NCBI GenBank assembly: GCA_020353515.1
Contig: CP070695.1
Coordinates: forward strand, 4,785,414 to 4,849,413
Direction: 5' to 3'
DNA from: Candidatus Heimdallarchaeota archaeon
Lineage (GTDB): Archaea > Asgardarchaeota > Heimdallarchaeia > Hodarchaeales > Hodarchaeaceae
Length of the DNA stretch: 64,000 nucleotides
Both the position numbers and the translations under genes were made by a program. This document shows, one piece after another, positions 37,086 to 58,927 of this stretch (positions are counted from its first letter, which is position 1; every line of letters begins with the position of its first letter). The notes beneath the pieces were generated by a model, which was given only the letters and a program-made list of their open reading frames with translations, did not search any database and was not told the origin of the DNA.

Positions 37086-38576
37086 TTAAGCTTTCTCACG
37101 AACTCCTGTTGCCTTTTCAGCTTTCGTACGACTTTTATATTCAAGAAATATCTCAGATAATTCTTGAATTTGCCGAAGGATATCTTGAACATTTAATTTT
37201 ACAAACTGATAATCATTGATAATAAGATGACCGTTTGCAATCACATACTGAATTTCATTCCCATTTGCAGCCCAAATTAAATTCTCTACTACATTATCTA
37301 CGCGTGTTGGTGTTAGATTGGGAACTCTTAAGTCGACGACAATTATATCTGCTAATTTTCCTGGTTTTATTGAACCTGTATTAAATCCTAAGATCTGAGC
37401 AGGTAAGGTTGTAATTCGCTCAAGAACGTCTTGAGCGGTCATTAAAGTTGCATCTTGATGAGTTGCTTTTTGAAATTGGGTAGCTACACGAGCAGCGTTG
37501 ATTATATTCTGATTATCAGCACTACCAGATCCATCAGTCGAAATTATGAACTCTATCCCTCTTTTCTTAAACTCCTGAAGGGGAGGCATTCCTGAACCAA
37601 GAATTGTGTTCGCTAGGGGATTATGTACGATCTTTGTTTTGGTTTGGGCTAGGATTTGGAGATCATTTTCCGTACAATGAACCTGATGTCCAACAAACGT
37701 TTTTTCATCAAGAAAATCAATGGAATGACCATATTCAATTGGAGTCATCCCATATTCCTCTAGGAACCATTTAGTTGTCGCTGGTTCCTCACTAGAATGA
37801 ATATGAATCAAGGTATTATGCTCTCTAGCCCACTCTTTTAACGCTTTTAGGAGCTCTGGTCCATTTGAAAAGAATTGATCTGGCCCAGGAATAATTTTGA
37901 TATTTGGGGTATCCTTATATTTTTCATATAGCTCATCAAGTCTCTCTACCGCAACTGTGGCTGGTTTATCCAATATTCTTGAATCATAATGCCTATCTTG
38001 AGATCCAACAGCAATCATAATCTTAGTTCCAGCCATCTGGTTTGCTTCGATTAATTCGTCTACATGATACTTGTTAAAATTACAATGATGAACTAATGCA
38101 GTCGTTATTCCATGTTGCAGGTCATCAATTCGTGCTTTAAGGTAAGTAATTAAATAAGGGGATCTCCCAAAATGTTTAGTTAAACTATTTTCCTCGCTAT
38201 GCAAAAAACCTGTGTATAGATTTACTGCTGAATCTAACCATGTTGTCAAGGGAACATCCTTAGCAATCCCGATAATGGGGGATTCATGATCATGACCATG
38301 CCCTTTAACAAAACCAGGTAAAGCGACCCCGTTTATCTGAGGAACCTTATCCGTTCCAATATTGTGTGAATGTGAACCAATAATCTCAATTTCCGACCCA
38401 TATTTGTTTAAAAGGTCATCAATTCTCTGTTCATTGTATTCGCCAACTTCTTTGATGTACTCCCCTTTAATAAAAATAAATCCGTCTCCAATTCGGGTTT
38501 TACGTCCTAATCTGTCAGAAAGAGGTAATAGATATTTGGTTCTAAGTAATTTGTACTTCGTCTGTCCACTAACCAT
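37086..38576 (-). CDS. Amidohydrolase-family deaminase (MTA/SAH or guanine-deaminase-like)
   Basis: PGFVKGHGH (HxH), HIHSSE, H.VH, STDG.GS and G.I..GK.AD. Confidence 0.85.
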   Translation of the reverse strand: MVSGQTKYKLLRTKYLLPLSDRLGRKTRIGDGFIFIKGEYIKEVGEYNEQRIDDLLNKYGSEIEIIGSHSHNIGTDKVPQINGVALPGFVKGHGHDHESPIIGIAKDVPLTTWLDSAVNLYTGFLHSEENSLTKHFGRSPYLITYLKARIDDLQHGITTALVHHCNFNKYHVDELIEANQMAGTKIMIAVGSQDRHYDSRILDKPATVAVERLDELYEKYKDTPNIKIIPGPDQFFSNGPELLKALKEWAREHNTLIHIHSSEEPATTKWFLEEYGMTPIEYGHSIDFLDEKTFVGHQVHCTENDLQILAQTKTKIVHNPLANTILGSGMPPLQEFKKRGIEFIISTDGSGSADNQNIINAARVATQFQKATHQDATLMTAQDVLERITTLPAQILGFNTGSIKPGKLADIIVVDLRVPNLTPTRVDNVVENLIWAANGNEIQYVIANGHLIINDYQFVKLNVQDILRQIQELSEIFLEYKSRTKAEKATGVREKA

Positions 38577-38726
38577 TAAGAAGCCTCGACTTCAGTTGTG
38601 AAGTATTTGTATTTCTCAACAGGTAGGACAGAAAAAAATGTTGAAAAAGTTAGAGATTCTTACTTCAGAAACAAGTTTAAAACATAAGACTCAGAAGTAA
38701 GTTTGTTTCCCTTGGATGGATAAAAT

Positions 38727-40109
38727 TTGGATCTTATTATCAAAAATGGAATACTTATTGACAATAATGGATGTTATCAGGCAAACCTAGCTATTGCAGA
38801 AGGAAAAATCAAAGCCATTTTCCAAGGAAATAAGAATTTTCAGGCAGAAAGAGTTATCGATGCAAGCAAAAAAATGATTTTTCCTGGAGTGGTTGATACA
38901 CATGTCCATTTTCAATTACAGGATTTAGGGAAGATTATCTCAACTGATACATTCGCATCTGGTACTCAAGCTGCTGCCTGTGGGGGAGTGACCACAGTAA
39001 TTGATTTTGCAGACCAAACGAGAGGAATATCTCCTTTAAAAGGATTTAATGAACGTAAGAAGAACGCTGATTCACAGGTAGCTATTGATTATAGTTTACA
39101 CGTTTCAAAAACCGACATTGAATTTCTTGATGAGATTCCCACTCTCATTTCTGAAGGGGTGGCAAGTTTTAAATTTTTCACCACTTATAGCTGGCGAAAC
39201 CTAGATCTTAACGATGCAGAGTTATTAGAATTATTTCAGGAGGTTAAAAAATGCAGGGGGATGGTCATGGGTCATTGCGAAAATGACTCAATGGTAATTA
39301 ATTATCGAGATACACTTATCCTAGAAGGAAAAAGAGATTCCATTTTCCATGCTCATTCCCGACCACATATTGTTGAAGAAGAAGCAATTCAGAGAGTTAT
39401 GTTATTTGCCAAAAAAACAGGAATTCATCTTCATTTAGCTCATATTACTACCAAAGAAGGTAGTGACTTATTATATCAAGCCAAACAACAAGGCCTATTT
39501 GTAACAGGTGAGACATGTCCACATTACTTGTTATTGAATGAAAGAGAATATAAAGGACCAGAAGGTTATTTAAATCTAATGTCACCACCTCTTCGGCACG
39601 TAAAAGATCAACAAGCATTATTAAAACGAGTAATTGATAATACGATCAATCAAATCACAACTGATCACTGTGAATTTTCACGTGCAAGCAAAGGTAATGG
39701 AGAATTACCGTTTCATCAAGTATTAAACGGTATACCAGGCATTGAGACTTCTTTACCTCTAATACATGATTTAATGATCAACAAACATAAATTAACGTAT
39801 CCTCAACTCATTTCTTTGATGTCAAGCAAACCTGCAAAAATATTTGGGCTTTATCCTCAAAAGGGAAGTCTGAGGATAGGAACAGATGCTGACATTGTTA
39901 TTTTTGACCCATGTTTGGAAAAACGAATCACACCTGAGATTCTCCATTATTCCATTGATTGGAATCCATTTTTGGGCAGGAAAGTCATAGGATGGCCTAT
40001 TATGACCATATTCCGAGGACACATTCTTTGTGAAAATGGAAAATTTATTGGCCCCCAAAATAAAGGCAGATATTTGAAATGTTCATACAAGAAAGCACTA
40101 AGATGTTGA
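38727..40109 (+). CDS. hydA: Dihydropyrimidinase / D-hydantoinase
   Basis: PGVVDTHVH, GGVTT, SFK (carbamylated Lys), HCEN, ETCPHYL, SPPLR, TDHC and KG....G.DAD. Confidence 0.9.
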   Translation: MDLIIKNGILIDNNGCYQANLAIAEGKIKAIFQGNKNFQAERVIDASKKMIFPGVVDTHVHFQLQDLGKIISTDTFASGTQAAACGGVTTVIDFADQTRGISPLKGFNERKKNADSQVAIDYSLHVSKTDIEFLDEIPTLISEGVASFKFFTTYSWRNLDLNDAELLELFQEVKKCRGMVMGHCENDSMVINYRDTLILEGKRDSIFHAHSRPHIVEEEAIQRVMLFAKKTGIHLHLAHITTKEGSDLLYQAKQQGLFVTGETCPHYLLLNEREYKGPEGYLNLMSPPLRHVKDQQALLKRVIDNTINQITTDHCEFSRASKGNGELPFHQVLNGIPGIETSLPLIHDLMINKHKLTYPQLISLMSSKPAKIFGLYPQKGSLRIGTDADIVIFDPCLEKRITPEILHYSIDWNPFLGRKVIGWPIMTIFRGHILCENGKFIGPQNKGRYLKCSYKKALRC

Positions 40110-40146
40110 AGAGCTTTTTTAAGGTTAATATTTTACTTACAGGATA

Positions 40147-40950: not shown

Positions 40951-40993
40951 GCGCTCTTGATGATGTATTTTCCATCCTCGGATTTGACTTGAA

Positions 40994-41470
40994 TTGTCTT
41001 TCAGGAAGAAAAACTCCCAAGGGGTTTACGTATTAGCTCTTAAAGTAGGTTATTCTATTAACATTACAACGAGTCGTTTCAAATGGGTACTCAAACCAGG
41101 AACTTATTTTTATTTCGGATCAGCCCGAGGAAAAACCTCCACATCTCTAGAAAAACGTTTATTTCGTCATTTTCACTATCAAAAAAGCATCTTTTGGCAT
41201 ATTGATTATCTTACTTCCCATTCTAAGACGAAAATATTGAATGCATATTTCACAACAGATCCTATGATTACTGAATGTCAAGCTCTCCGCGAATTTGTAC
41301 AAAAGTTTCACGAAATAAAAGTCATTCCAAAATTTGGTTCTTCTGACTGTAAATTGAAATGTGGAGGTCATTTACTATCCGTTTCAAGTAACCAAGATAT
41401 TCTTGCAGAATATTCACAGTATTTCAGTCACAGTAACTGGAATGAATTCAAATTTGAATCTGAGTACTAG
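40994..41470 (+). CDS. GIY-YIG (Uri/DUF123) endonuclease-family protein
   Basis: GVYVL, G.Y.YFGSA, R..RH, WHIDYL, EC and FGSSDC..C..HL. Confidence 0.88.
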   Translation: MSFRKKNSQGVYVLALKVGYSINITTSRFKWVLKPGTYFYFGSARGKTSTSLEKRLFRHFHYQKSIFWHIDYLTSHSKTKILNAYFTTDPMITECQALREFVQKFHEIKVIPKFGSSDCKLKCGGHLLSVSSNQDILAEYSQYFSHSNWNEFKFESEY

Positions 41471-41621: not shown

Positions 41622-42395
41622 TTGCCATTGCCTTTCAGGAAAAAGAAAAAAAAGAAATTCCCTGACCCACCTTCATTTTATGAACAGAGGGAGAAGGCCC
41701 TGCAAGGACCCCCAAAAACACCTCCACCACTTCCTACTCCGAAATATCAGACTCTTGAAGGGCCTCCCAAACAACAGGAATTAAAAGGGCCTCCAAGACA
41801 ACAACCTGATAGAGGTATTGCTGCTCCTCCCAATCTCCCCCCACCTCCCCCTTTTGCCAGGAAGGTCCCCGCACAACCCCCTCAACAACCTGCTAAAGCC
41901 CCAGTTCCAATTTTTGACGATAACCTCGCAGATGAAATTCATACTGAATTAAGACAAAGAGATTTTGGTTCTACCATGAAAAAAACTCCGGAAAGAGAAG
42001 CGGTCCATCTATCGACTGATGACTTAACAAAACAGCACTTTCGTAATTCAAGGCAAGAATACATTGAAGCAGGGAATAAACACCTCGAATTAAATTTTTA
42101 TGGCAATGCTGCAACTAATTATGCATGTGCTATTCTCTGTGATTTAATAGGGGAAGGAATACAAAAAGCTCGTCATACAATGTTAACTCTAGTTTCTACC
42201 GTTCCTTCCGCGGTTACAGAGAATAATTTTTTTGATAGCGTTAGACTACTACTTGAAGCAATTCGGACAAAGAATTATACTTTTCAAACTCGTGCCGAGA
42301 ATCTCATAAAAAAGAATATGGGACATCTCTACCCAGAGGATGTTGCTATGGTTGAAAAGGCAATTAAAACAGCGAGAGCACAATTCGGATATTGA
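41622..42395 (+). CDS. Polybasic/proline-rich protein with C-terminal TPR/SNAP-like helical domain
   Basis: RKKKKKK N-terminus, polyproline tracts over residues ~14-97, and a helical C-terminus containing AILCDL...LLEAI. Confidence 0.7.
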   Translation: MPLPFRKKKKKKFPDPPSFYEQREKALQGPPKTPPPLPTPKYQTLEGPPKQQELKGPPRQQPDRGIAAPPNLPPPPPFARKVPAQPPQQPAKAPVPIFDDNLADEIHTELRQRDFGSTMKKTPEREAVHLSTDDLTKQHFRNSRQEYIEAGNKHLELNFYGNAATNYACAILCDLIGEGIQKARHTMLTLVSTVPSAVTENNFFDSVRLLLEAIRTKNYTFQTRAENLIKKNMGHLYPEDVAMVEKAIKTARAQFGY

Positions 42396-42407: not shown

Positions 42408-42869
42408 TCAAGACAATGGAAATTTTCTTAATAATTCAGTACATTCTTCATTCTCTTGGTATTCAAGAATCACCCCATGAGATTTTAAGAAATTTTCAGC
42501 ACCCAGTATTGTCGTGTTATCAGCTATAACTACCTTTGATATCTGAAGATAAACGATGGTCCCGGAACACATCTGACAGGGTGAGAGAGTAGTATAAAGG
42601 ACTGATCTTTTATATTCTTCAGGAAGCAAAATTCCTGCATTCTCTATTGCGTCCATTTCTGCATGTAAAATGACGCTGCCTTTTTGGTTGCGTTGATTTC
42701 TTCCTCTACCGACAATCTTTCCATCAAGAACCAAGACTGATCCAATTGGTAGACCATTTTCTTCAAAACCCAGTTTAGCTTCTTGAACTGCTGCTTGCAT
42801 AAACTCATCCATATTCTCTTCATCTCCGATTTTGACCATTACTTCATAAGTGGGTTTATTCTTACCCAT
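42408..42869 (-). CDS. Cytosine/nucleoside deaminase (CDA-fold, Zn)
   Basis: PIGSVLV, HAE and SPCQMC Zn-binding motifs. Confidence 0.9.
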   Translation of the reverse strand: MGKNKPTYEVMVKIGDEENMDEFMQAAVQEAKLGFEENGLPIGSVLVLDGKIVGRGRNQRNQKGSVILHAEMDAIENAGILLPEEYKRSVLYTTLSPCQMCSGTIVYLQISKVVIADNTTILGAENFLKSHGVILEYQENEECTELLRKFPLS

Positions 42870-43064: not shown

Positions 43065-44114
43065 TCAAATTCCTGCCATTGTGAGTGCCATAATAGCTTT
43101 TTGGACGTGTAATCGATTTTCTCCAACGTCATAGATGCATGAACGAGGACCAGAGGCAACCTCATCAGTGACTTCATGGCCCCGATCGATGGGCATCGGA
43201 TGGGTGAATATCCCGTTATCTGTCAAGGCCATTTTATCTGCATCGCAGATCCACTCTGGAAATTTTAATGCCTTATCAATTTCCTGTTGTTTTAGAAATT
43301 CACCTTCTTGGTAAGCCTCGGGGCTCATCCAATGACGGGAATATACAACATGGGCTCCCTCATACCCTTTTGTAGGATGATTAATAGTTTCAAAGCTTGC
43401 ATCATATTTACTACAGTTCTGTTCTGTCCATTTAACGACTTGAGGATCGAGATCATATCCTTCAGGGGAGGCAACAGTAACGTCCATACTATACCGCGAA
43501 CCAATAAGCATAGCTTCTTGAACAGAACACCATGACCGGGTTAAAGCTCCATGACCCCAGGTAATCAGTAATTTCTTCCCTTTCAATGTACGCCAATCTG
43601 GGGGATATTTCGTACCTTTATTGAACCATTCTGCCCAACCCATGGCGTCTGCAAGTCCTTGGCAGGGATGAAATTTATCATGGGCCATTGAAATGATAGG
43701 AATTGATGCCCACTTAGCATATTCTCGAAGGAGATTTTCTCCTTGACCATACGCTCCAACTTTATCCTCAAGAATTCTTATTCCAAGACCATGTGCATAA
43801 CGAGACATTATCTGGGCAGCATCTTCCACCGTTTCCCCTGCGGTCTTCTCGGTTTTAAGACGCATGGCTTTTGGTTCCAGAAATTGGGCATGTCCTCCTA
43901 ATTCTGTCGCAGCGACTTCAAAACTCTGTCTTGTTCGCACACTAGGATTATAAAAAAACATAAAGAATGTTTTATGCTGTAATAGACTTGTATATTGAGG
44001 GGAAAACCGTTCCCGCTTCATTCTTCCTGCTAGATCAAGTACTAAATCTAGCTCATGTTTTTCCCAATCTTGAGTACAAATTAAATCTCGTCCATATAAA
44101 TCTGAAAATTCCAT
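43065..44114 (-). CDS. Ornithine-carbamoyltransferase-family transcarbamylase (divergent)
   Basis: SVRTR, HPCQ and HPMP (instead of HCLP). ATG 44114 behind an AGGAGG SD; the ORF track starts at 44165. Confidence 0.88.
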   Translation of the reverse strand: MEFSDLYGRDLICTQDWEKHELDLVLDLAGRMKRERFSPQYTSLLQHKTFFMFFYNPSVRTRQSFEVAATELGGHAQFLEPKAMRLKTEKTAGETVEDAAQIMSRYAHGLGIRILEDKVGAYGQGENLLREYAKWASIPIISMAHDKFHPCQGLADAMGWAEWFNKGTKYPPDWRTLKGKKLLITWGHGALTRSWCSVQEAMLIGSRYSMDVTVASPEGYDLDPQVVKWTEQNCSKYDASFETINHPTKGYEGAHVVYSRHWMSPEAYQEGEFLKQQEIDKALKFPEWICDADKMALTDNGIFTHPMPIDRGHEVTDEVASGPRSCIYDVGENRLHVQKAIMALTMAGI

Positions 44115-44133: not shown

Positions 44134-45120
44134 TTATGGAACAATGATAGTTCCTGCTTCTCCATCTAGAGCTGCTGCTGCAAGTTCAGGGGTGGTTATT
44201 ACCACTTTTTTCCCACCATCCTTTAAGAATCTAATTGCTGCTTTCAGCTTAGGCCCCATTGATCCTTTTAACTTATTTCCGAATGCTCCTTCTTCTAAAT
44301 ACTTTTCAACTTCAGCCACAGTCATTCGGTCAATGCCTCTCTGCTCTGGTGTTTTGTAATTCAAGTAAACTTTATCTGTATCTGTTAAAATAGCAAAAGC
44401 TTCAGCCTTTGTGTCGTTAGCTAATCTTTCTCCGGCCAAATCTTTGTCAATGACGGCTTCAACACCCGAAACTGTCCCATCGGGATTTTTAAGAACAGGT
44501 ATACCTCCTCCACCGCTGGCTACTAGTATAAAGCCAGCTTCTAAAAGATCGTTAACCTGATCCTTTTCATAAATCTCAATTGGATCTGGAGATGGAACAA
44601 CTCGTCGATATCCTCTTCCAGCATCTTCGATAATTGTGAAATCAGGATGTTCTTCCCTGATTCGATCAACTTGTTCTTTAGTGTAAAATGGCCCTACTGG
44701 TTTTGTGGGATTTTCGAACGCTGGATCATCTTTTGACACAACAACTTGTGTAATGATTGTTGCAACTTTGATTTTTTTACTAGGATCCAGTCTACTAGGG
44801 GGACCTTCAGTAACCAAGAGATTACCAAGAATATTCTGAATGAGGTATCCTATCTGGCCCTGTGTCATCGATCCACAAACATCCATTTTGAACGAAGGGC
44901 GGTTATAGGGAGGATGGGAACCTGCTTCCATTTGCAGCATGAGATTTCCCACTTGAGGACCGTTACCATGAGTTATCACGACCCGCCATTTTGGAATGAC
45001 CTTCATGATTTGTTTTGCGGTTTGAGTGACATTTTCGATCTGTTCCTCTAATGTCCCTCTCTGTTTCCCCTTGATCATGGCATTTCCACCCAGTGCAATG
45101 ACAACTAGCGGCTTGAACAT
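44134..45120 (-). CDS. arcC: Carbamate kinase
   Basis: ALGGNA, THGNGPQVG, PTKPVGPFY, RRVVPSP, GGGGIPV, EAVIDKD and GSMGPK. Confidence 0.96.
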   Translation of the reverse strand: MFKPLVVIALGGNAMIKGKQRGTLEEQIENVTQTAKQIMKVIPKWRVVITHGNGPQVGNLMLQMEAGSHPPYNRPSFKMDVCGSMTQGQIGYLIQNILGNLLVTEGPPSRLDPSKKIKVATIITQVVVSKDDPAFENPTKPVGPFYTKEQVDRIREEHPDFTIIEDAGRGYRRVVPSPDPIEIYEKDQVNDLLEAGFILVASGGGGIPVLKNPDGTVSGVEAVIDKDLAGERLANDTKAEAFAILTDTDKVYLNYKTPEQRGIDRMTVAEVEKYLEEGAFGNKLKGSMGPKLKAAIRFLKDGGKKVVITTPELAAAALDGEAGTIIVP

Positions 45121-45248: not shown

Positions 45249-46517
45249 TTACTGCGTTTTCTTCCCCTGTAAAGCTACCAGAAGTGTATACATAAGAATG
45301 AGACAAACTAGAGAAAATCCTGTTGTAGGTTGCGGGCTTGTTTCATTTGATAGACTTGAAGATGTCATTTGTTTTGTTTCCGTGAGTTGTGAGTGTGTAT
45401 TATTGATTGAAAATTCTCCTGAAATTATTTCTTCTGTTAAAAAAGCGCCAACTTCTTCTACACATACAATTGTCACTTTTATCTTATAATGCATGCCATC
45501 TTGAAGAGCTGATGTATTCCAGTCGTAGGTTGTACCAATTTCATTAGCTGCGAACCTAATCCATGTGAGTCCACTATCGTTAGAGTAATCTAAATGGCAA
45601 AACAAATCATGTTTCCATGAGTCTGATAAATTCCAACGAATAGTTGCTATTGATGATAGTTGGTCTCCTGGATTAGGAGAGAGAAATTCTGGCTTTGATA
45701 ACTTATGAGGATGCCATATTTCGAGACTATCTAGCATCACGACACTGCAGTTCACCAAATCACGAAATGTGTATGCATCCACTATTGATCCTGCATTATC
45801 AGTTATCCCATTATATCCGTAATGAAAGGGAATACCGTACTTTAGGTCTGATGAGTTTTTAATGAGCTCTACAGCTTTAACCGCGTCAGTTGCATTCATA
45901 ATAGACAATCCACCAACGGGGAGAAGAGCTATATCAGTTTCTATATCCCCCATCTCTGGAATTGGCCCCGTATCCCCTGCAATGTAAATTCTCACACTCC
46001 CAAAATCAACTATCACACCTAATCCATCATCCTCCTGGGGGTGATAGGGTTCACCATTCGGACGAAACCGATGAACATTGTAAGCAGGTACAAATTCAAA
46101 ATCAATTCCATCAAATGATAACGTATCTCCTGGCGTAACAATGTAATCTCCAAGTGTTTGAGGGGAACTAATGAGAATGGTATTTTCATCAGTTACTTTC
46201 TCAATATCATAGGGTGAATAATGTGGAGCATGGTCATGAGTGACTATAATGAAATCTGCAGGTTCTTCATGTACATGTATTTCAATAGGGTCAATATAGA
46301 CAATTAGCTCACTTGTGTTAAGTTTTACAGCTTCACTTAAGTACCAACGAATAGTCACACCGCCATATTGGAAATTTTCACCTGAATCTATAATGATCTT
46401 CTCATTGTTGGTATTTATCATGAATATATGATTGGTCGAAGAAATTGTAATCGCTGACAATGTAGTACTTATTGCAATAAGAACAATTATCATTTTAGTG
46501 TGTGATTTTTTCATCAT
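45249..46517 (-). CDS. Secreted MBL-fold metallo-hydrolase with Ig-like domain and C-terminal membrane anchor
   Basis: Signal peptide, YIDP, THDHAPH, YIAGDT and IPFHY; Ser/Thr linker followed by TGF-TM-basic tail. Confidence 0.8.
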   Translation of the reverse strand: MMKKSHTKMIIVLIAISTTLSAITISSTNHIFMINTNNEKIIIDSGENFQYGGVTIRWYLSEAVKLNTSELIVYIDPIEIHVHEEPADFIIVTHDHAPHYSPYDIEKVTDENTILISSPQTLGDYIVTPGDTLSFDGIDFEFVPAYNVHRFRPNGEPYHPQEDDGLGVIVDFGSVRIYIAGDTGPIPEMGDIETDIALLPVGGLSIMNATDAVKAVELIKNSSDLKYGIPFHYGYNGITDNAGSIVDAYTFRDLVNCSVVMLDSLEIWHPHKLSKPEFLSPNPGDQLSSIATIRWNLSDSWKHDLFCHLDYSNDSGLTWIRFAANEIGTTYDWNTSALQDGMHYKIKVTIVCVEEVGAFLTEEIISGEFSINNTHSQLTETKQMTSSSLSNETSPQPTTGFSLVCLILMYTLLVALQGKKTQ

Positions 46518-48885: not shown

Positions 48886-48887
48886 AT

Positions 48888-49972: not shown

Positions 49973-51037
49973 TTAGTGCATTATACAAGCCATTATTCCT
50001 TTTTGAGCATGAAGTCTGTTTTCTGCTTGATCAAAGATAATAGATCGGGGGCCATCGGCAACCTCGTCATCTACTTCCATTCCTCGATCTTGGGGGAGAC
50101 AATGCATGTAGTATCCGCGTCCTTTCTTGGTGACGTCCATTAATTCAGTTGTCGTCTTCCAGTCTGTATATTTGTTCATGATTTCTGGCATGATTTCTGG
50201 TTTCGCGGGTCTTACTCCTTCAATCCCGTGGGCTTCTAACACTCCCCAGCTCTTGGGATATACAAAATCTGCTTCTTCAAACCCGGTTTTCATATCTCGT
50301 TCAATTGTAAATGATCCGCCATAAATATCAGCATGCTCTTCTACCTTTTTGATGATATCAGGATGTAGATCGAATTCGGGAGGACAAGCTAATGTGACAT
50401 CCATCCCAAACATCGATGGGGCTAGAACGCCTGTTTGAGGGACAGCCATTGGTTTTTGACCTGCAGAATATGCCCAACTCATTACGAACTTTTTTCCTTG
50501 CAATTTGTTGAAATCATGACTGCATTTCTCGTATATGGTCATGATATCGGCCATTCCTTGGCAGGGGTGATACACATCAGATTCCATATTGATAATTGGT
50601 TTTTTACTCCAATAGGCAAAGTTTTCTTGGATTTGTTGTCCTTTACCATAGATCCAGTTACATTTACTGCCATAAATACGTATAGCAATGGCATCACCCA
50701 TCCGAGACAGGACACGTGAAACATCAGATACCCTCTCTGTTTCATAAGCAATCTCATCGCCTGGTAATGCTGGGGTGTAGATAGCACCAGGTTGGAGAAA
50801 GTGTGCATGACCACCTAATTGAGTCATCCCTGCCTCAAATGAATTTCGGGTTCGAAGAGAATCATTATAAAATATCATAAATAGAGTTCGACCAGGGAGG
50901 ATGTGTCGGTGATCCTCATATGCAACAAAGCGCTTTTTTAAATCAATTCCAACAAGTAACATGGTCTCGATTTCTTCTCGTGTGAAATCAACCATTGTGA
51001 GGAAATCTCGTCCTTTCAAGTCTTCTGTAGTTACCAT
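49973..51037 (-). CDS. YgeW-like / knotted carbamoyltransferase
   Basis: SLRTR, HPCQ, SWAYS..QKP.AVPQ, YPKSW and YMHCLP, as in YgeW/acetylornithine transcarbamylases. ATG 51037 preferred. Confidence 0.85.
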   Translation of the reverse strand: MVTTEDLKGRDFLTMVDFTREEIETMLLVGIDLKKRFVAYEDHRHILPGRTLFMIFYNDSLRTRNSFEAGMTQLGGHAHFLQPGAIYTPALPGDEIAYETERVSDVSRVLSRMGDAIAIRIYGSKCNWIYGKGQQIQENFAYWSKKPIINMESDVYHPCQGMADIMTIYEKCSHDFNKLQGKKFVMSWAYSAGQKPMAVPQTGVLAPSMFGMDVTLACPPEFDLHPDIIKKVEEHADIYGGSFTIERDMKTGFEEADFVYPKSWGVLEAHGIEGVRPAKPEIMPEIMNKYTDWKTTTELMDVTKKGRGYYMHCLPQDRGMEVDDEVADGPRSIIFDQAENRLHAQKGIMACIMH

Positions 51038-51145: not shown

Positions 51146-51934
51146 TTAGTAAGTGGATTCACTATCGTTTGGAGCACAACAAGAAGGAGAAGAAAAATAT
51201 CCTTGAGAGACCTCCAATAATGATGTTTCTGTTGTCCAAATTGCGTGCCAATGATTTGTATTCCAGTTGGAGATCGTCAGTAAAATTTTGTCATCAACAA
51301 TGAGAAAAAAGCAAATACAACTGATTGCCTGATAACTAAATGGAAAGTCTTGTGTTGGTAAGTTTTGGTGATAGAACCCAAGAGATAAGTCGGAAAGTCT
51401 CTCCTGAGCATGTGTGATAGATTTTTCAAGAGGATAAAACAGCTCTTTGTTTGGCATCATTAATGTTATGCTTGAAGTCGCCTCATCGATTAACCGTTTT
51501 GCATGGTTAAATATGTTGGATTTTCCTTTTATTATATAGGCAATTTTTGGCGATTCTTCGTGATCCTGATAAATAGGTACCAGTGATTCGATTAATTTAT
51601 CTATGGAAGCCATTCTTCTTGTAAACTCTGTTTTGAAGATTGTTCGTAAATTTTCCATTGCTTCAATTGGATGAACTGCAATGAATTTCTTTGGTACTCC
51701 TTCTTGAAGGATGATCAAGCCCTTTTTCTGTAAATTATCCATAGTCCGATAGATTTTACTATCAGGGATTCCCGTTTTTTCAACCAACTTACTCGCAGTT
51801 GCAGTCTCCAACGGTAATAAAGCGATATATGCTCTTGCTTCATTCCTAGTCAGATTTGTTTCCATTAGATCATCGATTAATCGTTTTTCTAGTTGATCAG
51901 CTCCCATTGATACTCTACTAACGGGTTCGGACAA
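51146..51934 (-). CDS. TrmB-family transcriptional regulator with C-terminal Cys pairs
   Basis: LT.NEA.AY.ALL, TGIP.SKIY..M..L..KGL and G.PK.F.A..P. Start is probably TTG 51934 or ATG 51907; the ORF-track start 52030 overlaps arsM. Confidence 0.88.
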   Translation of the reverse strand: MSEPVSRVSMGADQLEKRLIDDLMETNLTRNEARAYIALLPLETATASKLVEKTGIPDSKIYRTMDNLQKKGLIILQEGVPKKFIAVHPIEAMENLRTIFKTEFTRRMASIDKLIESLVPIYQDHEESPKIAYIIKGKSNIFNHAKRLIDEATSSITLMMPNKELFYPLEKSITHAQERLSDLSLGFYHQNLPTQDFPFSYQAISCICFFLIVDDKILLTISNWNTNHWHAIWTTETSLLEVSQGYFSSPSCCAPNDSESTY

Positions 51935-51991
51935 AGCATTTTCTTCCTTTTTTCTACTCACCCTCGGTAGAAGAACCTTAAAAATCTTTCC

Positions 51992-51999
51992 TTTATATA
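51992..51999. promoter_or_regulatory. TATA box (TTTATATA) in trmB/arsM divergent intergenic region
   Basis: Archaeal TATA consensus about 23 nt upstream of the arsM ATG. Confidence 0.5.
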
Positions 52000-52021
52000 T
52001 AGTAAATAGGTGTATGATGCA

Positions 52022-52795
52022 ATGAGTCAATTCAAGAAAGAAATTAAAAAGACCTATACGAACGCATTAAACCAACGTCTTCAAACACAACTCAGTGAAC
52101 AATCTAGTTGTTGTTCTCCGTCATCAACATCAGATGAAAGCAATGATTTAACACAAACTGATTGTTGTCCTCCTACAGCAACTGAAACGAAAAAGCAATC
52201 TACCATCCCTAGTTTTGGATGTGTTATCAATCTCGCTCAGAAAGCGAACATTCAAAAAGGTGATATCGTAATAGATCTTGGTAGTGGCGCTGGCCATGAC
52301 TTATTTCAAGCGGCAGATTTTGTAGGGCCTAATGGGAGAGCAATTGGGATTGATTTTACCCATGATATGATCATTGCAGGAATGAAAACTGCCATGGAAA
52401 AAGGCTATACTAATGTTGATTTCCGTCTTTCGGATATTGAGGAAATTAATATTCTCCCAGACAATTTTGCTGATGTTATTATCAGTAATTGTGTGATTAA
52501 TCTTACTATGGATAAAGGTGCCGTCTTCAAAGAAGCTTTCAGAATTCTTAAACCCGGTGGACGGCTGGTGGATGCAGATATCATTGCTGCCAATCAATTA
52601 CCTTCTGAAATTACCCAGGATCCTGAGACATGGTGTTCTTGCTTAGGTGGAGCATTAACAGAAGAAGGATACAGTGAAAAAATCAAAGAAGCTGGTTTTG
52701 AAGGAATTAAAGTGACTATATTTAGTGATTTCAAGTATCTGAATAATCAGTTTCACAGTGGTATTATTGAGGCACAGAAACCACTAAGTGACTAA
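52022..52795 (+). CDS. arsM: Arsenite S-adenosylmethionine methyltransferase
   Basis: N-terminal CC pairs, SFGC, DLGSGAG, ISNCVINL and WCSCLGGAL. Confidence 0.85.
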   Translation: MSQFKKEIKKTYTNALNQRLQTQLSEQSSCCSPSSTSDESNDLTQTDCCPPTATETKKQSTIPSFGCVINLAQKANIQKGDIVIDLGSGAGHDLFQAADFVGPNGRAIGIDFTHDMIIAGMKTAMEKGYTNVDFRLSDIEEINILPDNFADVIISNCVINLTMDKGAVFKEAFRILKPGGRLVDADIIAANQLPSEITQDPETWCSCLGGALTEEGYSEKIKEAGFEGIKVTIFSDFKYLNNQFHSGIIEAQKPLSD

Positions 52796-52996: not shown

Positions 52997-55900
52997 TTGG
53001 GCTATTTATCTGGTGGTTTCATGAATATTTCCATTATTAAGGACAAAGATAACTTTGAAGGAATAATTCGACCGATTAATACTGGTGTTGATTCACAAAA
53101 ATTAGCCGATTTTTTCAATGCAATTGATGATTTGTGGCCAGGAACATGGACTCAAGGAATCAAGTATGATGAAAAACGTGCTAAGGAATTTATTGAAAAA
53201 AGAAAAGCTCTTGAATGGTTCGTTGCTTTCGATCCTCAAGATCGTTTAGTTGGTTTTTGTTCTGTTCACAAACGTATGGAAGAACCTAATGTTTCATACA
53301 TTGGTGTTTTAGGTGCTCACCCTGAAGTTCTAGGAAAAAAATATGGTAAGCATCTCCTCCTCACTGCTGTTGATTTTAGTGTGAAAAATGGGGATGTACG
53401 GCAAGATCTGCACACTTGGCCCTCAAATATGAAAGCTGTTCCTCTTTACAAGAAGATTGGCCTTCAATGGGTTCCTGATACATCAGTATACATGCAGAAC
53501 TATATTCCTATCATTTTGCAGAATTCCTTCTGTAAACCGTTTTTTGATAAACATCCTGATTGGTATCTCGATCAGAAGCGTGATGTGACGCAAGCTCCTG
53601 ATGAGCAGACCCTAGGATCTATGAAAGTTTTTTATTATCGCTTTGAAAAAGGGGAAGACTTTCTTGAAGTTATCATTGATCGTTACAGTCGTTCCATTGT
53701 TGGTATTACCAGAAAAATAGACGGGGAATTAATTGGAATAACCTTACAACAAAAAGATCATGATGTTTTTGCTGGAATCAAGCATAAAGCCTCTCTTCTC
53801 ATAAAAAATGAATCCAGTAAAGAACTATCTGTCATCGTATCTATGGAGGGGTCTAAGGAAATCACTGTGAAAGCGAGTCAAGAGATCTTAACAGTTCCCA
53901 AGGGAAGAAAGACCCTTGAAAATACTTATGTTGTTGATGATATCACTTCAGATACTGATATTCAGAGAAAAACCCCCAGTATTAGAAGTCGTATTATTAT
54001 AGATGGAGAAGTCCTCACATTAGAGGCAGGTATGAAAGTTCGTCAGCTTATCGATATCATGATTTCAGATCAGGTTTGGTGGAGGCCTTCTGGAAAACAG
54101 GCTATTTCGATACATGTACAAAATCGGTCAGAAAAACCCATTGAAGGTGAATTGGTATTCTGGTCAATTAATGAGATTGAAATCCTCTCTCCTGTTATCC
54201 CAATTAAACTGGCTCCTGAAGAGAATATCGGTGTCGACGCTCAAATAGAAATCCCCACGAATGATGAAGACATTTTTACAACTCTATATTGTCAGGTTAA
54301 GATGGGGGATGTCAAGAGTAGAGTATTTGAACTCCCAATCTTCCTTTCCAATAATCAAGGATTAGCAGCTGGCATTCAACAGGATAAGAAGTGTGTTATC
54401 ATCCAAAACCAGTATATTCGTGGTGTTCTAAAACTAGAGGGAGCTAGCGTTGACTTTCGTACTCCTGATGAAACTTTAATGGGGGTAGGACTTCGTACAC
54501 TTGATTATGGTCCTCCTTTCGGTTTTAGTGAATTTAATCAAGTTGAATTTAGTCCGAAAATAATAGAAAAAAGAAATTCTATTCAGGTTAAACTTTCAAG
54601 GAGGGGACAATCTAAAGGAGATTTGTTTTTCCATCGAATTTTCGAATTAAAGGCAGGAGACCCTCACTTTGCCACATGGACAGAAGTTCAAAACTTAGGA
54701 ACTGTAGATGATCAGATAACTACTATTTTAGAACCTCACTTCACCCATGGGATAAATATGCCTCTTGGGGAAACCTATTTCGTTTTTGATGATCAACTCG
54801 TGTGTGGACCTGCCTTTTTCTGGCCTGCAGGAAAAGGAGACTTACCTGAAGGAACTGAAAGGTATGAACCATGGGTCTGTATGCAGCTAGGAGATGTTAG
54901 TTATTACCACATTTATGAAACTCATGACACTAAAGCAGATCCTAGTCGTAGTAAACTATCATCCCTTGAAAAACAGATCCAAATTCCAGCTCTCTCCTCA
55001 TGTAGCGGGCCAAAGAGCTGGATTGGATGTGGGAACATAGAATGGAAGAGAGTTCGTGAACTAGCATATTATTTGAGTAAAAATCAAGTATTGTCTCCAA
55101 TTCAGCAAAATATTGAACCAAAGTCATATCTTAATCTTGAGATACCAAAAAATCAATTACTTATTGGAAAGAAAATTTCTGAAATCCAAATAACGCTTAA
55201 ATCAATACGCCTAATGCCTTTGAATGGCCGTTTAATCATTGAGGTACCTAAAGGATGGACAATTACTCCAAACGAATTTGAAATTGCAAATTTAAACTTA
55301 AATAATTCCCAAGAATTCAAATGTAAATTGGAATTACCAAATAATGTCATTTTTGGGACTTTCAACCTAAATTTTATTATTGAGAGCCCAGAAAAAAGAG
55401 AAACTAGGCACATTCAATTTTTAGTTTTTGATGGCAAAGAAAAACCAGAAATTCTTGATCTTCCACCAGAATCGAATAAAAATTTGATCCTTGCTAGAAA
55501 TAATAACCTTGAAATTACGAGTTCAGGTGATTTTGCTGCTTGTTTAACTCAAATAAAGTATAACGGTCAACCATATTTACTATCTAATTTTCCAAACTAT
55601 TCTCCATCTATCTTTTTCTCAAAAGATCCTGGTGGTATGGTTAATTCGATTTTTCAAAGCGAACAAGATGATTTGGATGATCCATCCTACCTAAAAGAGA
55701 AATATGTATCTAAGAAAATCCAATCCGATCATTGGTCTGGAGTTGAATATTCTACAACTCTTCATGAAATAAAGTCATTAAAGGGATTAGCTATCAAAAT
55801 TGCATACGAGATATTAGGAGGAGACTCCAGTTTAATTCGCGTTCGAACAACGATTCATAATCCAACATCTGCTACGTTTCGAGCTATATCAGTCAGTTTA

Positions 55901-56242
55901 TTAAGTCCAGGAATTGATGGAAGCATAGAAAACATGGTTTCAAGATTTTCTATTGGGACTGAGGCTCCTTTTCAAGTTTCAAGAGATAATCCTGTACCTA
56001 TTTTCGGAGCTGGGCCAGATGAGATGGCTTATTTAACATTAGCAAAGGAAAATAACTCCCTTTCTGTCATAAAAACATCGTCAAGAACTAAATTAATTCC
56101 ACTTGACGCTGGAAAAATGATACTAGGAGCTGGATTTCTCACATTCTGGAGCTTAAGGCCCAACCAGACTGACGAAGTGTCCTACTTTATTTCTCTAAAC
56201 AGCAAGGAGGAATTTCTAAAGGATATTTCCCATATTTTTTAG
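52997..56242 (+). CDS. Large protein with N-terminal GNAT domain and beta-rich C-terminal domains
   Basis: YIGVLGAHP..LGKKYGK and LHTWPSNMKAVPLYKKIG. The start may be ATG 53021. Confidence 0.8.
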   Translation: MGYLSGGFMNISIIKDKDNFEGIIRPINTGVDSQKLADFFNAIDDLWPGTWTQGIKYDEKRAKEFIEKRKALEWFVAFDPQDRLVGFCSVHKRMEEPNVSYIGVLGAHPEVLGKKYGKHLLLTAVDFSVKNGDVRQDLHTWPSNMKAVPLYKKIGLQWVPDTSVYMQNYIPIILQNSFCKPFFDKHPDWYLDQKRDVTQAPDEQTLGSMKVFYYRFEKGEDFLEVIIDRYSRSIVGITRKIDGELIGITLQQKDHDVFAGIKHKASLLIKNESSKELSVIVSMEGSKEITVKASQEILTVPKGRKTLENTYVVDDITSDTDIQRKTPSIRSRIIIDGEVLTLEAGMKVRQLIDIMISDQVWWRPSGKQAISIHVQNRSEKPIEGELVFWSINEIEILSPVIPIKLAPEENIGVDAQIEIPTNDEDIFTTLYCQVKMGDVKSRVFELPIFLSNNQGLAAGIQQDKKCVIIQNQYIRGVLKLEGASVDFRTPDETLMGVGLRTLDYGPPFGFSEFNQVEFSPKIIEKRNSIQVKLSRRGQSKGDLFFHRIFELKAGDPHFATWTEVQNLGTVDDQITTILEPHFTHGINMPLGETYFVFDDQLVCGPAFFWPAGKGDLPEGTERYEPWVCMQLGDVSYYHIYETHDTKADPSRSKLSSLEKQIQIPALSSCSGPKSWIGCGNIEWKRVRELAYYLSKNQVLSPIQQNIEPKSYLNLEIPKNQLLIGKKISEIQITLKSIRLMPLNGRLIIEVPKGWTITPNEFEIANLNLNNSQEFKCKLELPNNVIFGTFNLNFIIESPEKRETRHIQFLVFDGKEKPEILDLPPESNKNLILARNNNLEITSSGDFAACLTQIKYNGQPYLLSNFPNYSPSIFFSKDPGGMVNSIFQSEQDDLDDPSYLKEKYVSKKIQSDHWSGVEYSTTLHEIKSLKGLAIKIAYEILGGDSSLIRVRTTIHNPTSATFRAISVSLLSPGIDGSIENMVSRFSIGTEAPFQVSRDNPVPIFGAGPDEMAYLTLAKENNSLSVIKTSSRTKLIPLDAGKMILGAGFLTFWSLRPNQTDEVSYFISLNSKEEFLKDISHIF

Positions 56243-56254
56243 GAAAGTTAAATG

Positions 56255-57526
56255 TTAAGATCTTACGTTATCAATCAAAATGGATTGAAGTTCAGAGATA
56301 TCTGGAGATATTGGAGGGGGCATAGAGATCTGCTTTAATAAGACTTTAGGATCTTTGAAACCAACCCCCGTTATAGGTATGACTACCCGATCTGATTGGT
56401 CAACCTTTCCAGATTCGACCAATTGCTCAAGACCAGCGAGTCCTGCGGTTCCTGATGGTTCACCGAAAATTCCTTCATATTGTGCTAACCACCGTTGGGT
56501 TCTGAGAATAGCTTCTTCTGATACAGCGACCGCAGTTCCAGAGCTATCATAAATAGCTGCTAATGCAGAGTCAGCATCCCAAGGATGAGGATCAGCAAGT
56601 CCTCCAGCCACGGTATGGGGAGATTTTTCCCAATCTTGAAATTTTAATGGTGATAATTTCTTTAACACCCCTTTAACAATCGGTGCACACTCATCAGGCT
56701 GTACCGCAATATGATGAGGAATAGAATGGATAAAATCAAGTTCTTCAAATTCCCTGAAGCCTCTATGAGTTCCTGCTAATAATCCTCCACTACCAGTAGC
56801 GAAAAATACCCAATCGGGTGGTTCCCAATCAAATTGTTCACATAATTCAAATCCCAGGCTTTTAGTTCCCTCGAATTGAAAGGGATTAAATGGACCAAAA
56901 GAAGGAGAAGGCATCCATTTAAAGGTTTCATAAGCCTTCTGAAAAAGTGTTACTGATGGATCTTGACCTTCCACTTCCTCCTTAACCCTAATTACTGTTG
57001 CTCCTAAATATGCTAGTTGGGATAATTTTCCTTCAGATACATGCTCAGGTACAAAGACAATGACTTTTTTTCCTGCTCTTGCACCATAAGTAGCTAGTGC
57101 TGCGGCTGCATTTCCAGATGAAGCTGCTGTTAAGACTTCAGCGCCTAATTCTACCCCTTTTGAAACTCCTACTGAAATAGGCCTATCTTTAAAGCTTCCT
57201 GAAGGATTTCCTGTTTCTACTTTGAAAAATAAATTCTTTAACCCGAATTTTTCTTTTCCTAAACGTCGAGATTGCAAAAGTGGAGTTCCTCCCTCGCCAA
57301 GATTAATGATATTTTGGTAACTACGGATAGGGAAAAACTCTCGATAGCGCCAATGACTGAATGGGCGTTTTTGTAGCATTTTTTGAGACACTTTTTCTTT
57401 TAATTTCTCATAATTGAAGTTTATTCGTAATCGGAACCCACAACCACAATTTTTTGTTATGAATTCCTCCTCTGGAATTATTTTGCTGCACTTTGGGCAT
57501 TTTAGAGAAGATTCATACATTGACAT
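56255..57526 (-). CDS. thrC: Threonine synthase-family PLP enzyme (fold type II)
   Basis: N-terminal Zn ribbon CPKC..CGC, LGEGGTPL, NPSGSFKDR (PLP Lys), ASSGNA, EG.K and TG.G.K. Actual substrate is uncertain. Confidence 0.85.
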   Translation of the reverse strand: MSMYESSLKCPKCSKIIPEEEFITKNCGCGFRLRINFNYEKLKEKVSQKMLQKRPFSHWRYREFFPIRSYQNIINLGEGGTPLLQSRRLGKEKFGLKNLFFKVETGNPSGSFKDRPISVGVSKGVELGAEVLTAASSGNAAAALATYGARAGKKVIVFVPEHVSEGKLSQLAYLGATVIRVKEEVEGQDPSVTLFQKAYETFKWMPSPSFGPFNPFQFEGTKSLGFELCEQFDWEPPDWVFFATGSGGLLAGTHRGFREFEELDFIHSIPHHIAVQPDECAPIVKGVLKKLSPLKFQDWEKSPHTVAGGLADPHPWDADSALAAIYDSSGTAVAVSEEAILRTQRWLAQYEGIFGEPSGTAGLAGLEQLVESGKVDQSDRVVIPITGVGFKDPKVLLKQISMPPPISPDISELQSILIDNVRS

Positions 57527-57571
57527 AACACATCTATTGGATAGGGTAAGACCTAGAAGGGAATAATATGT

Positions 57572-58927
57572 TCATATCTGTCTAGATATTCTCGGTGTAA
57601 GATCCAACCGCTCCCAGAGGGAGACAGCAGAATCCATGGATTGCTGACTTACATTTGTCGCATCAAGAGAGGTGTGAATACCATTTTTAACAACTGTTTG
57701 ACCGTTCACAATGACCCGCTTGACATCCCTTCGTGAAAATGATCCATAAACTAGATGTCCATAAATGTTATTTTCATGGATGGGTGTGGGTAACGCAGTA
57801 GTATCTAGAATTGTAAAGTCAGCTGCTTTTTCTTTCTCTATTGAACCAATCTGTTCTTTCAAACCTATAGCTTGGGCCGCATTTATTGTAATCATTTGTA
57901 CTACTTGCAATGGAGTGGGTAATTGACTTGGATTATGATGATTCAATTTATGCATGAGGTAGGCGGTTCTCATGTTTTCAATTGCGTCATAAATGAAACC
58001 ATCATTACCAACACCAATGTTTATTCCCTTTTGTATCATCTCTGGTATTTGAGCCACGCCAACTGCGTTTAATTCATTACTTTTAGGATTATGGGCCACA
58101 TTCGTACGTGTTTCAGCAATAAGATTCATTTCATGCTCATTAATATGCACAGCATGAGCCAATGCGGTTTTTGGACCAAGGAAGCCTTCATCATAAAGTC
58201 GTTCGACTGTTCGCTTTCCATATTTCTCTAAATTATGGTGTAAATCTGCTAGGCCTTCTGATGTATGAATTGTTTTGAAAGAATCTGTTTCTGACGCATA
58301 ATCAACAGTTTTATGTATTAATTCGTCTGAAACTGTGAAAGAAGCATGTAAACAATAGATTCCATTTACCAATGTTTTTTCAGGGTCATTTTGAGAGATA
58401 AAATGACGATTTTCTTCTAGACCTCTAATCCCTTCTTCAAAACTACGACGTTCTGTGACTTCAAAGCATATTACTCCTCTAATACCGACATCCTGTGTTG
58501 CCTTTGAAATGCGATGTAATGACCCCTCAATGGAATTTGGTCCTGAATATGTGTCTAAATATGCAGTTACTCCATTCAAAGCTAATTCATAAGTTGCATA
58601 TAAAGCAGAAGTATACGCATCCTCTAATGTGAGAGCCTCATCCATTGTCCACCATATACGTTGCAAATTCTGCGTAAAATCAGTAGGCGGATCAATTTGG
58701 AGTGGGGCTCCTCGTAATAATGCTGAATACAGATGTGTATGGGCACAGATAAATCCTGGAAACACCACTTGATTAGTACAATCAATGATAGAGTCAGCTT
58801 TCTCAGGAATATCTTTTCCGACCATCATGATCTTACCATCCTCCACTAATACATTTCCTTGGGGAATAACTTCGTTATTCGTATTCATAGTAACAATTAA
58901 GCCATTTTTGAGTAATAGACGCTCCAT
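57572..58927 (-). CDS. SsnA-like amidohydrolase
   Basis: PGFICAHTHLYSALLRG, F...L..IWW..D..L, LHASFT, IHTSEG..D, HNP.SN..NAVG and G.DG. Confidence 0.85.
   Translation of the reverse strand: MERLLLKNGLIVTMNTNNEVIPQGNVLVEDGKIMMVGKDIPEKADSIIDCTNQVVFPGFICAHTHLYSALLRGAPLQIDPPTDFTQNLQRIWWTMDEALTLEDAYTSALYATYELALNGVTAYLDTYSGPNSIEGSLHRISKATQDVGIRGVICFEVTERRSFEEGIRGLEENRHFISQNDPEKTLVNGIYCLHASFTVSDELIHKTVDYASETDSFKTIHTSEGLADLHHNLEKYGKRTVERLYDEGFLGPKTALAHAVHINEHEMNLIAETRTNVAHNPKSNELNAVGVAQIPEMIQKGINIGVGNDGFIYDAIENMRTAYLMHKLNHHNPSQLPTPLQVVQMITINAAQAIGLKEQIGSIEKEKAADFTILDTTALPTPIHENNIYGHLVYGSFSRRDVKRVIVNGQTVVKNGIHTSLDATNVSQQSMDSAVSLWERLDLTPRISRQI

Follow-up and report, generated by a model that had tools for sequence, protein, structure and literature searches.

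A two-transcarbamylase gene cluster in a Hodarchaeales archaeon suggests a plausible variant of the 2,8-dioxopurine degradation pathway

The subject of this work is a gene cluster at positions 37086-58927 of a 64,000-nt stretch (hereafter, the window) of contig CP070695.1 (GCA_020353515.1), from a Heimdallarchaeota archaeon of the order Hodarchaeales. The cluster encodes two transcarbamylases (TCase-1 and TCase-2), a carbamate kinase (CK), a HyuA-like hydantoinase, an SsnA-like amidohydrolase and a ThrC-like pyridoxal phosphate (PLP) enzyme. Gene content and comparative context suggest, with a probability that we put at about one half, that the cluster represents the ring-opening, ureide-cleaving lower half of a reductive purine pathway of the urate/2,8-dioxopurine type, held as an accessory trait by one Hodarchaeales genus and probably obtained from bacteria. 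We regard such a variant of the 2,8-dioxopurine pathway as plausible and as not limited to archaea. A broader proposal, which we put forward tentatively, is that an all-phosphorolytic variant of reductive purine degradation is widespread among Asgard archaea and in a number of anaerobic phyla of bacteria, with TCase-1 standing in for YgeY, a yield of 2 ATP per purine and a diaminopropionate ammonia-lyase derived from threonine synthase.

Every step of the proposed route is inferred from homology and context. Deaminases would funnel amino-bases to oxo-bases, with a 496-aa amidohydrolase of the cluster as the proposed aminopurine or oxopurine deaminase. Reduction and dearomatisation of the purine would fall to an XdhD-like molybdoenzyme (gene at 0.56 Mb), perhaps together with an F420-type luciferase-like reductase (gene at 1.26 Mb). 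The SsnA-like amidohydrolase would open the six-membered ring of the reduced dioxopurine, and the hydantoinase would open the five-membered ring, giving 2,3-diureidopropionate. TCase-2, a YgeW-clade enzyme, and TCase-1 would each cleave off one ureido group phosphorolytically as carbamoyl phosphate, which the single CK would turn into ATP, up to 2 per purine against 1 in E. coli. Finally, the ThrC-derived PLP enzyme would convert 2,3-diaminopropionate into pyruvate and ammonia, replacing YgeX.

The grouping of these genes in the window is a real cluster and not the product of chance. The 22-kb span is interleaved with unrelated genes, coding for a transglutaminase-like protein, a DUF123 protein, an MBL-fold protein, GNATs, an ABC-2 exporter, a methyltransferase and a 1081-aa GNAT protein. 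Meanwhile, a 122-kb contig from a relative (L029) holds the same nine genes inside about 15 kb, with most of the inserts missing. Their order there is SsnA-like, ThrC-like, methyltransferase, TrmB-family regulator, TCase-2, CK, TCase-1 and deaminase, followed by three small genes and then by the hydantoinase and the 496-aa amidohydrolase. The order SsnA-like, ThrC-like, TrmB, TCase-2 is preserved at 10 further Hodarchaeales loci. The TrmB-family gene (51146-52030, minus strand; Pfam TrmB and Regulator_TrmB) lies directly upstream of TCase-2, an order kept in L029, L037, L039, L040 and L044. The compact arrangement in L029 and the conserved order indicate that the window carries the same cluster with inserts (MBL-fold, winged helix-turn-helix, GNAT, ABC-2 exporter and 1081-aa GNAT genes). 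The window is part of a single contig of 4.94 Mb, and it also codes for archaeal A-type ATPase subunits, a thermosome and a Ras-family GTPase, with an even G+C content; therefore the cluster is not a mis-binned bacterial fragment. The closest homologues of the cluster proteins carry Hodarchaeales or Heimdallarchaeota labels, and a scan of genome contigs with the SsnA-like protein matched only close Hodarchaeales relatives. The enzyme genes listed by a first-pass annotation of this DNA, along with an Xdh trimer elsewhere in the window, were all present where it had placed them and belonged to the families named.

TCase-1 (43065-44114, minus strand, open reading frame (ORF) to 44165) and TCase-2 (49973-51037, minus strand, ORF to 51070) both consist of OTCace_N and OTCace domains and are 38% identical to each other. 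Homologues of TCase-1 begin at its Met18, 19 nt past the CK stop codon, and those of TCase-2 at Met12 of the ORF. Both keep the S-x-R-T-R and HPCQ carbamoyl-phosphate motifs, and both lack the ornithine SMG loop. SLRTR, HPCQ and HCLP are invariant in the TCase-2 family, and TCase-1 displays SVRTR, HPCQ and, in place of HCLP, HPMP. Both enzymes scored below every NCBIfam cut-off for ornithine (OTC), N-acetylornithine (AOTC), putrescine (PTC) and aspartate (ATC) carbamoyltransferases and for YgeW. TCase-1 reached 221 against a cut-off of 288 for AOTC, 207 against 306 for OTC and 101 against 453 for YgeW; the corresponding scores of TCase-2 were 264, 225 and 157. A PTC identity was rejected, with scores of 166 and 198 against a cut-off of 500.

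Phylogenetic trees were also built (FastTree of 107 sequences, IQ-TREE of 58). The metagenome scan that supplied homologues used generic patterns, and about 60 of its 80 loci were ordinary OTC or AOTC, which were kept as outgroups. A non-canonical TCase clade was split from canonical OTC with a support of 100. Inside it, TCase-1 formed a clade of its own (SH-aLRT 99), and TCase-2 clustered with E. coli YgeW (SH-aLRT 98), a grouping that, given the long branch of E. coli YgeW, is moderately secure. An argD-linked, AOTC-like clade was distinct from both. The best tblastn matches of the genome to E. coli YgeW were TCase-2 (31% identity) and a second match (28%), both in the cluster. The closest solved structures to both proteins were the N-acetylornithine carbamoyltransferase of Xanthomonas (ArgF', PDB 3KZC) and other knotted TCases, with E values of about 1e-52 to 1e-55. 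On the evidence of scores and trees, neither TCase is an ordinary ornithine or acetylornithine carbamoyltransferase, in line with the first-pass annotation, and TCase-2 probably belongs to the YgeW clade.

Database annotations for the TCase homologues nonetheless read ornithine or N-acetylornithine carbamoyltransferase, as would be expected if ordinary biosynthesis genes, namely (acetyl)ornithine carbamoyltransferases for arginine and a threonine synthase, lay side by side by chance. The genome has four OTCace genes: TCase-1, TCase-2, pyrB and a separate argF. The product of this argF groups with E. coli ArgI in canonical OTC, whereas both TCases fall outside the argD-linked clade and flank a catabolic carbamate kinase. 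The same explanation would make a threonine synthase of the ThrC-like fold-type-II PLP enzyme (56255-57526, minus strand; 423 aa, PALP, with an N-terminal Zn-ribbon), the only gene product of the genome above the thrC cut-off. Its scores on the thrC models are marginal (303.7 against 303, and 176 against 167), and its motifs differ from those of three solved threonine synthases, reading ASSGNA, GPFNPFQ and GSGGL where these have ASTGNT, NSVNPYR and GNAGN. Residues invariant in the three but replaced here are the Thr of ASTGNT, the Asn-Ser and Arg of NSVNPYR, and GNAGN. We take these residues to form the O-phosphohomoserine phosphate site, as in the T. thermophilus complex; a literature search on the role of ThrC phosphate-site residues returned nothing. 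Homoserine kinase (thrB) was not found in the whole genome, and genes of core biosynthesis would not be expected to be scattered as accessory genes within one genus, as these are. We rejected canonical biosynthesis of arginine and threonine on the basis of scores, trees, motifs, the missing thrB and the separate argF, and chance adjacency of biosynthesis genes appears highly improbable. As a side observation, a genome with neither thrB nor a ThrC of canonical motifs may belong to a threonine auxotroph or to an organism that uses another route.

The position of the ThrC-like gene provided further insight into its likely role. It starts 45 nt downstream of the SsnA-like gene, and homologues of its product (32-35% identity) come after TCase-1 and CK in L064, L065, L069, L111 and L026. 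The bacterial homologues linked to such modules are also without the Arg and GNAGN, while a canonical-looking outlier (L114) retains them. For YgeX, the best score in the genome on TIGR03528 was 41.5 against a cut-off of 532, and tblastn gave only a partial match of 25% identity. The lost motifs, the lack of thrB and ygeX, and a conserved place following either SsnA or the TCase-1/CK pair make a beta-eliminating lyase, acting on the amino-acid product of the pathway, the most likely identity of the ThrC-like protein. This favours the earlier suggestion that it takes the place of diaminopropionate ammonia-lyase.

Related modules occur well beyond this archaeon. TCase-1 homologues with 72-87% identity were found in Hodarchaeales and Chloroflexota. 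The archaeal TCases are nested among bacterial sequences, and TCase-1 is 72-79% identical to proteins labelled Chloroflexota (L024, L026), which suggests inter-domain transfer of the module from bacteria. Contigs labelled Caldisericia or Acetothermia, as well as metagenome contigs, have genes similar to TCase-2 and TCase-1 side by side, together with CK. A module composed of TCase-2 or a third TCase clade, TCase-1, CK and the ThrC-like gene recurs in L064, L065, L069, L070, L071 and L111. Of the 19 loci whose upstream flank was long enough to judge, 15 by our own tally have a second ureide-cleaving partner (TCase-2, the third clade or YgeY) near the TCase-1 family member, which is usually followed by CK and a ThrC-like gene. 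The first-pass annotation had proposed a variant in an Asgard archaeon; the variant is not specific to archaea and looks to have come from bacteria. The third clade is small (TCase-3; L065:10001-10996, L070, L071), and its members always lie directly upstream of a TCase-1 family member, replacing TCase-2.

The neighbours of the bacterial modules are consistent with purine degradation. TCase-1 adjoins, in L068, a YgfK that is 46% identical to E. coli YgfK over 533 residues. The module in L048 carries a GltD-like reductase followed by an SsnA that is 35% identical to that of E. coli, and Xdh genes lie beside the modules of L031, L046 and L047. Among 124 neighbouring ORFs from 29 non-archaeal loci (TCases and CK removed), the Pfam tally was PALP 9, Peptidase_M20 5, Amidohydro_1 3, Fer4_20 3 and MoCoBD 2, which are families of the E. 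coli uricolytic cluster (PMC12507026). This comparative context supports a purine-type ureide pathway with two TCases, as had been proposed from the window, while the YgfK- or PydA-type reductase that such a pathway would be expected to use was not found in the genome. Separately, a long CysK-like PALP protein (486-489 aa; L026:4528-5988, L030:11050-12519, L065:7800-9269) recurs beside bacterial two-transcarbamylase modules and has no counterpart in the window.

The cluster could also be read as serving ATP-yielding catabolism of another ureide or hydantoin, such as allantoin/allantoate (diureidoacetate), imported albizziin or further N-carbamoyl amino acids, 5-substituted hydantoins or citrulline; its amidohydrolases and TCases would then have specificities that have nothing to do with the 2,8-dioxopurine route. 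The bacterial modules of L064, L065 and L069 hold only TCases, CK and the ThrC-like gene amid housekeeping genes, which would suit an imported ureido amino acid. The scores of the key enzymes below equivalog cut-offs, the 272 bits of the cyclic amidohydrolase on the allantoinase model and the missing YgfK fit this explanation too. Nevertheless, the adjacency of YgfK, SsnA, Xdh and YgeY in related loci and the co-distribution of the XdhD-like gene point to purines, and a partner of the PLP beta-lyase type fits a diaminopropionate product and not the glyoxylate-forming chemistry of allantoate. For citrulline, no arginine deiminase (arcA) was found in the genome, the best match being a partial one of 94 bits against a cut-off of 489, and the arginine deiminase pathway was rejected. 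Overall, we consider catabolism of another ureide quite improbable.

The remaining enzymes of the cluster were compared with those of the reductive purine pathway. CK (44134-45120, minus strand) passes TIGR00746 with 369.8 against a cut-off of 358, and it is the only carbamate kinase of the genome, the single tblastn match to E. coli YqeA (40% identity). The two TCases flank it, and in L029 it also sits between them. The SsnA-like amidohydrolase (57572-58927, minus strand; 451 aa) has NF005540 as its best NCBIfam family (389.5 bits, below the cut-off of 444; next family 258) and is the best match of the genome to E. coli SsnA (29% identity). It is 38% identical to the SsnA homologue that adjoins TCase-2, TCase-1, CK and the reductase in L048. 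The cyclic amidohydrolase (38727-40109, plus strand), the best match to E. coli HyuA (35%), scores 398.8 against 393.25 on TIGR02033, a model that does not separate hydantoinase from dihydropyrimidinase. Indeed, the best tblastn matches of the genome to E. coli SsnA, HyuA, YgeW (two matches) and YqeA all lie inside the cluster. The hydantoinase gene is divergently paired, in the window and in L029, with the gene for the 496-aa amidohydrolase (37086-38576, minus strand; Amidohydro_1, TRZ/ATZ/guanine-deaminase-like). The best NCBIfam models for this protein are of chlorohydrolase/deaminase types, all far below cut-off; its PDB neighbours are atrazine chlorohydrolase and uncharacterised amidohydrolases, and its feature neighbours include guanine deaminase clusters, which serve as a lead only.

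The cluster also holds a CDA-fold nucleobase deaminase (42408-42869, minus strand; dCMP_cyt_deam_1). It was correctly noted in the first pass, and its nearest solved relatives, the yeast Fcy1-type cytosine deaminases (E about 1e-28, against 1e-16 for TadA and 1e-9 for guanine deaminase), point to pyrimidines. The region could be a mixed nucleobase island in which each TCase serves its own pathway. TCase-2 would act on purine-derived diureidopropionate, the second group being removed by YgeY or another hydrolase, and TCase-1 would act on beta-ureidopropionate or beta-ureidoisobutyrate, formed from cytosine/uracil through the Fcy1-type deaminase and a dihydropyrimidinase. A cyclic amidohydrolase that passes the dihydropyrimidinase/D-hydantoinase model would serve such a route, as would a genomic YgeY-family gene that adjoins a class-III (beta-alanine/GABA-type) aminotransferase gene, and Chloroflexota have YgeY, TCase-1 and CK without TCase-2. 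Yet no dihydropyrimidine dehydrogenase was found in the genome, its only DHO_dh gene being the biosynthetic pyrD in a pyrimidine biosynthesis cluster. The deaminase is the last gene after TCase-1, a position kept in L029 and not in bacterial modules, so that the link to cytosine deaminase is limited to Hodarchaeales. In bacteria, the neighbours of TCase-1 are YgfK, SsnA, Xdh and ThrC-like genes and not pyrimidine genes. A single pathway accounts better for the tight pairing of the TCases across phyla, and YgeY is not co-distributed with the cluster. We therefore rate a mixed island as unlikely.

The redox steps of the purine pathway would be encoded elsewhere in the genome. The best match to E. 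coli XdhD lies at C1:563,663-565,996 (40% identity, 515 bits), in a gene set that comprises FAD, FeS and MoCo subunits with MocA alongside. The surrounding region (C1:562,384-572,532) holds two adjacent Xdh-type Mo/FAD/FeS sets, MocA, a YqeB/XdhC-like gene, a seven-transmembrane histidine kinase and an SDR. The window has its own Xdh/4-hydroxybenzoyl-CoA-reductase-type Mo-FAD-FeS trimer (5190-8886, plus strand), for which all NCBIfam models are below cut-off. It lies 28 kb from the cluster, is loosely linked to it, and is 28-30% identical to E. coli XdhA and XdhD. This trimer, which the first-pass annotation had associated with the pathway, was downgraded as its first enzyme, since the paralogue at 0.56 Mb is nearer to XdhD and co-distributes better with the cluster.

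A lead for the dearomatising step came from another archaeal contig (L127, Logan SRR24348884), where an SsnA-like gene (53% protein identity) lies beside genes for a luciferase-like protein, an adenine deaminase and a Bmp nucleoside-binding protein. An orthologue of the luciferase-like protein (54% identity) is encoded in the genome under study at 1.26 Mb (C1:1,262,726-1,263,748). SsnA clusters of Chloroflexota carry an F420-type reductase instead of YgfK (PMC12507026), and the neighbourhood in L127 fits that description. The luciferase-like protein is perhaps a substitute dearomatising reductase, and we treat it as a candidate lead. The L127 locus itself, which includes a Bmp-type nucleoside ABC transporter, looks like a separate purine-salvage or purine-degradation locus.

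Distribution across 22 congeneric genomes links several of these genes. As these genomes are close kin, they are not independent; YgeY, which shows another pattern, served as an internal control. The SsnA-like gene and the two TCases were jointly present in 16 and jointly absent in 4, with two incomplete genomes discordant. The hydantoinase occurred in all 16 cluster-bearing congeners. The XdhD-like gene was present in 15 of these 16 and in none of the 4 without the cluster; for the luciferase-like gene the counts were 14 of 16 and 0 of the 6 others. Orthologues of the window Xdh trimer were found in 13 of the cluster-bearing genomes. Meanwhile, YgeY was missing from 6 cluster-bearing congeners (71-93% complete) and present in 3 without the cluster. 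Outside this genus, a search of 39 genomes of the same class returned no TCase-1 orthologue. We take the cluster to be an accessory trait of one Hodarchaeales genus, probably acquired from bacteria.

Several findings weigh against the purine reading. The upstream redox genes lie 0.7-1.4 Mb away from the cluster. Neither YgfK (highest TIGR03315 score 276 against a cut-off of 835, over the GltD-like part only) nor a dearomatising reductase of the PydA, PreA or UacX type was found in the genome, and the case for a luciferase-like substitute comes from one neighbourhood and from co-distribution in close, non-independent kin. Both TCases and the SsnA-like protein score under their NCBIfam equivalog cut-offs. 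A cyclic amidohydrolase that passes the dihydropyrimidinase model, beside an operon deaminase nearest to yeast cytosine deaminase, makes a pyrimidine branch for TCase-1 a live rival. No nucleobase permease was seen within the window. Finally, a strong YgeY-family gene at 3.478 Mb (451-477 bits, above cut-off), 1.3 Mb from the cluster, could supply a hydrolase for the second ureido group.

YgeY also bears on which ureido group each TCase would take. In Chloroflexota, TCase-1 lies between a YgeY-family M20 gene (468 and 327 bits against a cut-off of 321; L024, L026) and CK, and one Chloroflexota contig with TCase-1 also has a GntR regulator and a ThrC-like gene. As no second TCase accompanies it there, TCase-1 may fill the step of YgeW and not that of YgeY, a further point against our assignment. 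Some bacterial loci pair YgeW-clade enzymes with YgeY. With both combinations on record, either TCase may take either ureido group. The first-pass annotation found no YgeY, YgeX or YgfK in the window, which tblastn upheld, and it allowed that canonical ygeY and ygeX elsewhere in the genome might complete the pathway: a YgeY-family gene was indeed found, but ygeX was not, and YgeY does not follow the distribution of the cluster. The YgeY-family gene is convergent with a class-III aminotransferase gene of the diaminobutyrate/gamma-aminobutyrate (GABA) type (C1:3,477,163-3,479,735; L023:9164-11736). About 2 kb from it lies npdG (NADPH-dependent F420 reductase); this locus may be a beta-ureidopropionase-like tail or unrelated.

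Other genes in and around the cluster deserve brief mention. The MBL-fold hydrolase gene (45249-46517; 422 aa), on the same strand as CK and 128 nt upstream of it, is probably an insert, because it is missing from the compact cluster of L029. The 1081-aa protein (52997-56242) has an N-terminal GNAT as its sole recognised domain, and a conserved copy (79-86% identity) separates the ThrC-like gene from the methyltransferase/TrmB pair at several Hodarchaeales loci. L029 has, at the corresponding place, a conserved counterpart (52%) of a 257-aa ORF at 41622-42395 that matches nothing in Pfam or NCBIfam. Just outside the cluster, a 378-aa protein (35793-36929) has a C-terminal 2x[4Fe-4S] ferredoxin and a 280-residue N-terminal part without a Pfam, NCBIfam or PDB match, and its gene comes after an isochorismatase-family gene and nadB. 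It was rejected as the missing reductase, as only the ferredoxin domain (Fer4) matched and the gene is missing from the compact cluster of L029. The nadB and isochorismatase genes (33036-35782) were judged unrelated to the pathway, nadB being a gene of NAD synthesis.

These observations may have implications for the reach of a recently described metabolism. The anaerobic urate pathway was elucidated as late as 2025 and was described as restricted to bacteria. We found neither an archaeal case nor a double-transcarbamylase or ThrC-like variant in the 2025 pathway papers and later reviews. If our reading is correct, the pathway reaches Asgard archaea and sediment bacteria, and its substrate-level ATP yield from ureido groups would be doubled, which would be relevant to energy-starved fermenters. 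It would also assign new functions to two enzyme families whose current annotations are ornithine carbamoyltransferase and threonine synthase. A paper on a Hodarchaeales isolate assigns Xdh genes a role in forming antioxidant uric acid (10.1101/2025.02.26.640444), whereas our reading would make the Hodarchaeales Xdh genes catabolic.

The closest known system is the 2,8-dioxopurine cluster of E. coli. Both share an SsnA-like and a HyuA-like enzyme, a YgeW-clade TCase with a carbamate kinase next to it for substrate-level ATP formation, an XdhD-like Mo enzyme in the genome and an amidohydrolase of the guanine deaminase type (guaD in E. coli). The archaeal system differs in having a TCase of a second family in the place taken in E. 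coli by the M20 hydrolase YgeY, a ThrC-derived PLP enzyme instead of YgeX, and a TrmB regulator in contrast to the sigma-54 type YgeV. No YgfK was found in the archaeon, for which a luciferase-like (F420-type) reductase is the candidate substitute, its redox genes are unlinked, and its enzymes, in an archaeal host, are only 28-41% identical to those of E. coli.

Replacement of pathway steps by non-orthologous enzymes has precedents. In C. difficile, UacX replaces YgfK and UacY replaces YgeW/YqeA (PMC12507026), and in the Chloroflexota variants SsnA has a luciferase-family reductase as a neighbour. The all-hydrolytic variant of C. difficile draws no ATP from the ureido groups, unlike the system proposed here, which would be all-phosphorolytic. 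The two TCases also resemble N-acetylornithine carbamoyltransferase, with a similar length and a place in the same large non-canonical clade, but they form separate clades, score below the AOTC cut-off and are not linked to argD or other arginine genes. In its energetics, the proposed system is reminiscent of the arginine and agmatine deiminase pathways, in which a transcarbamylase running in reverse and a carbamate kinase yield ATP; here, in contrast, no arginine deiminase was found, and the TCases that would feed the kinase lie outside the OTC and PTC families.

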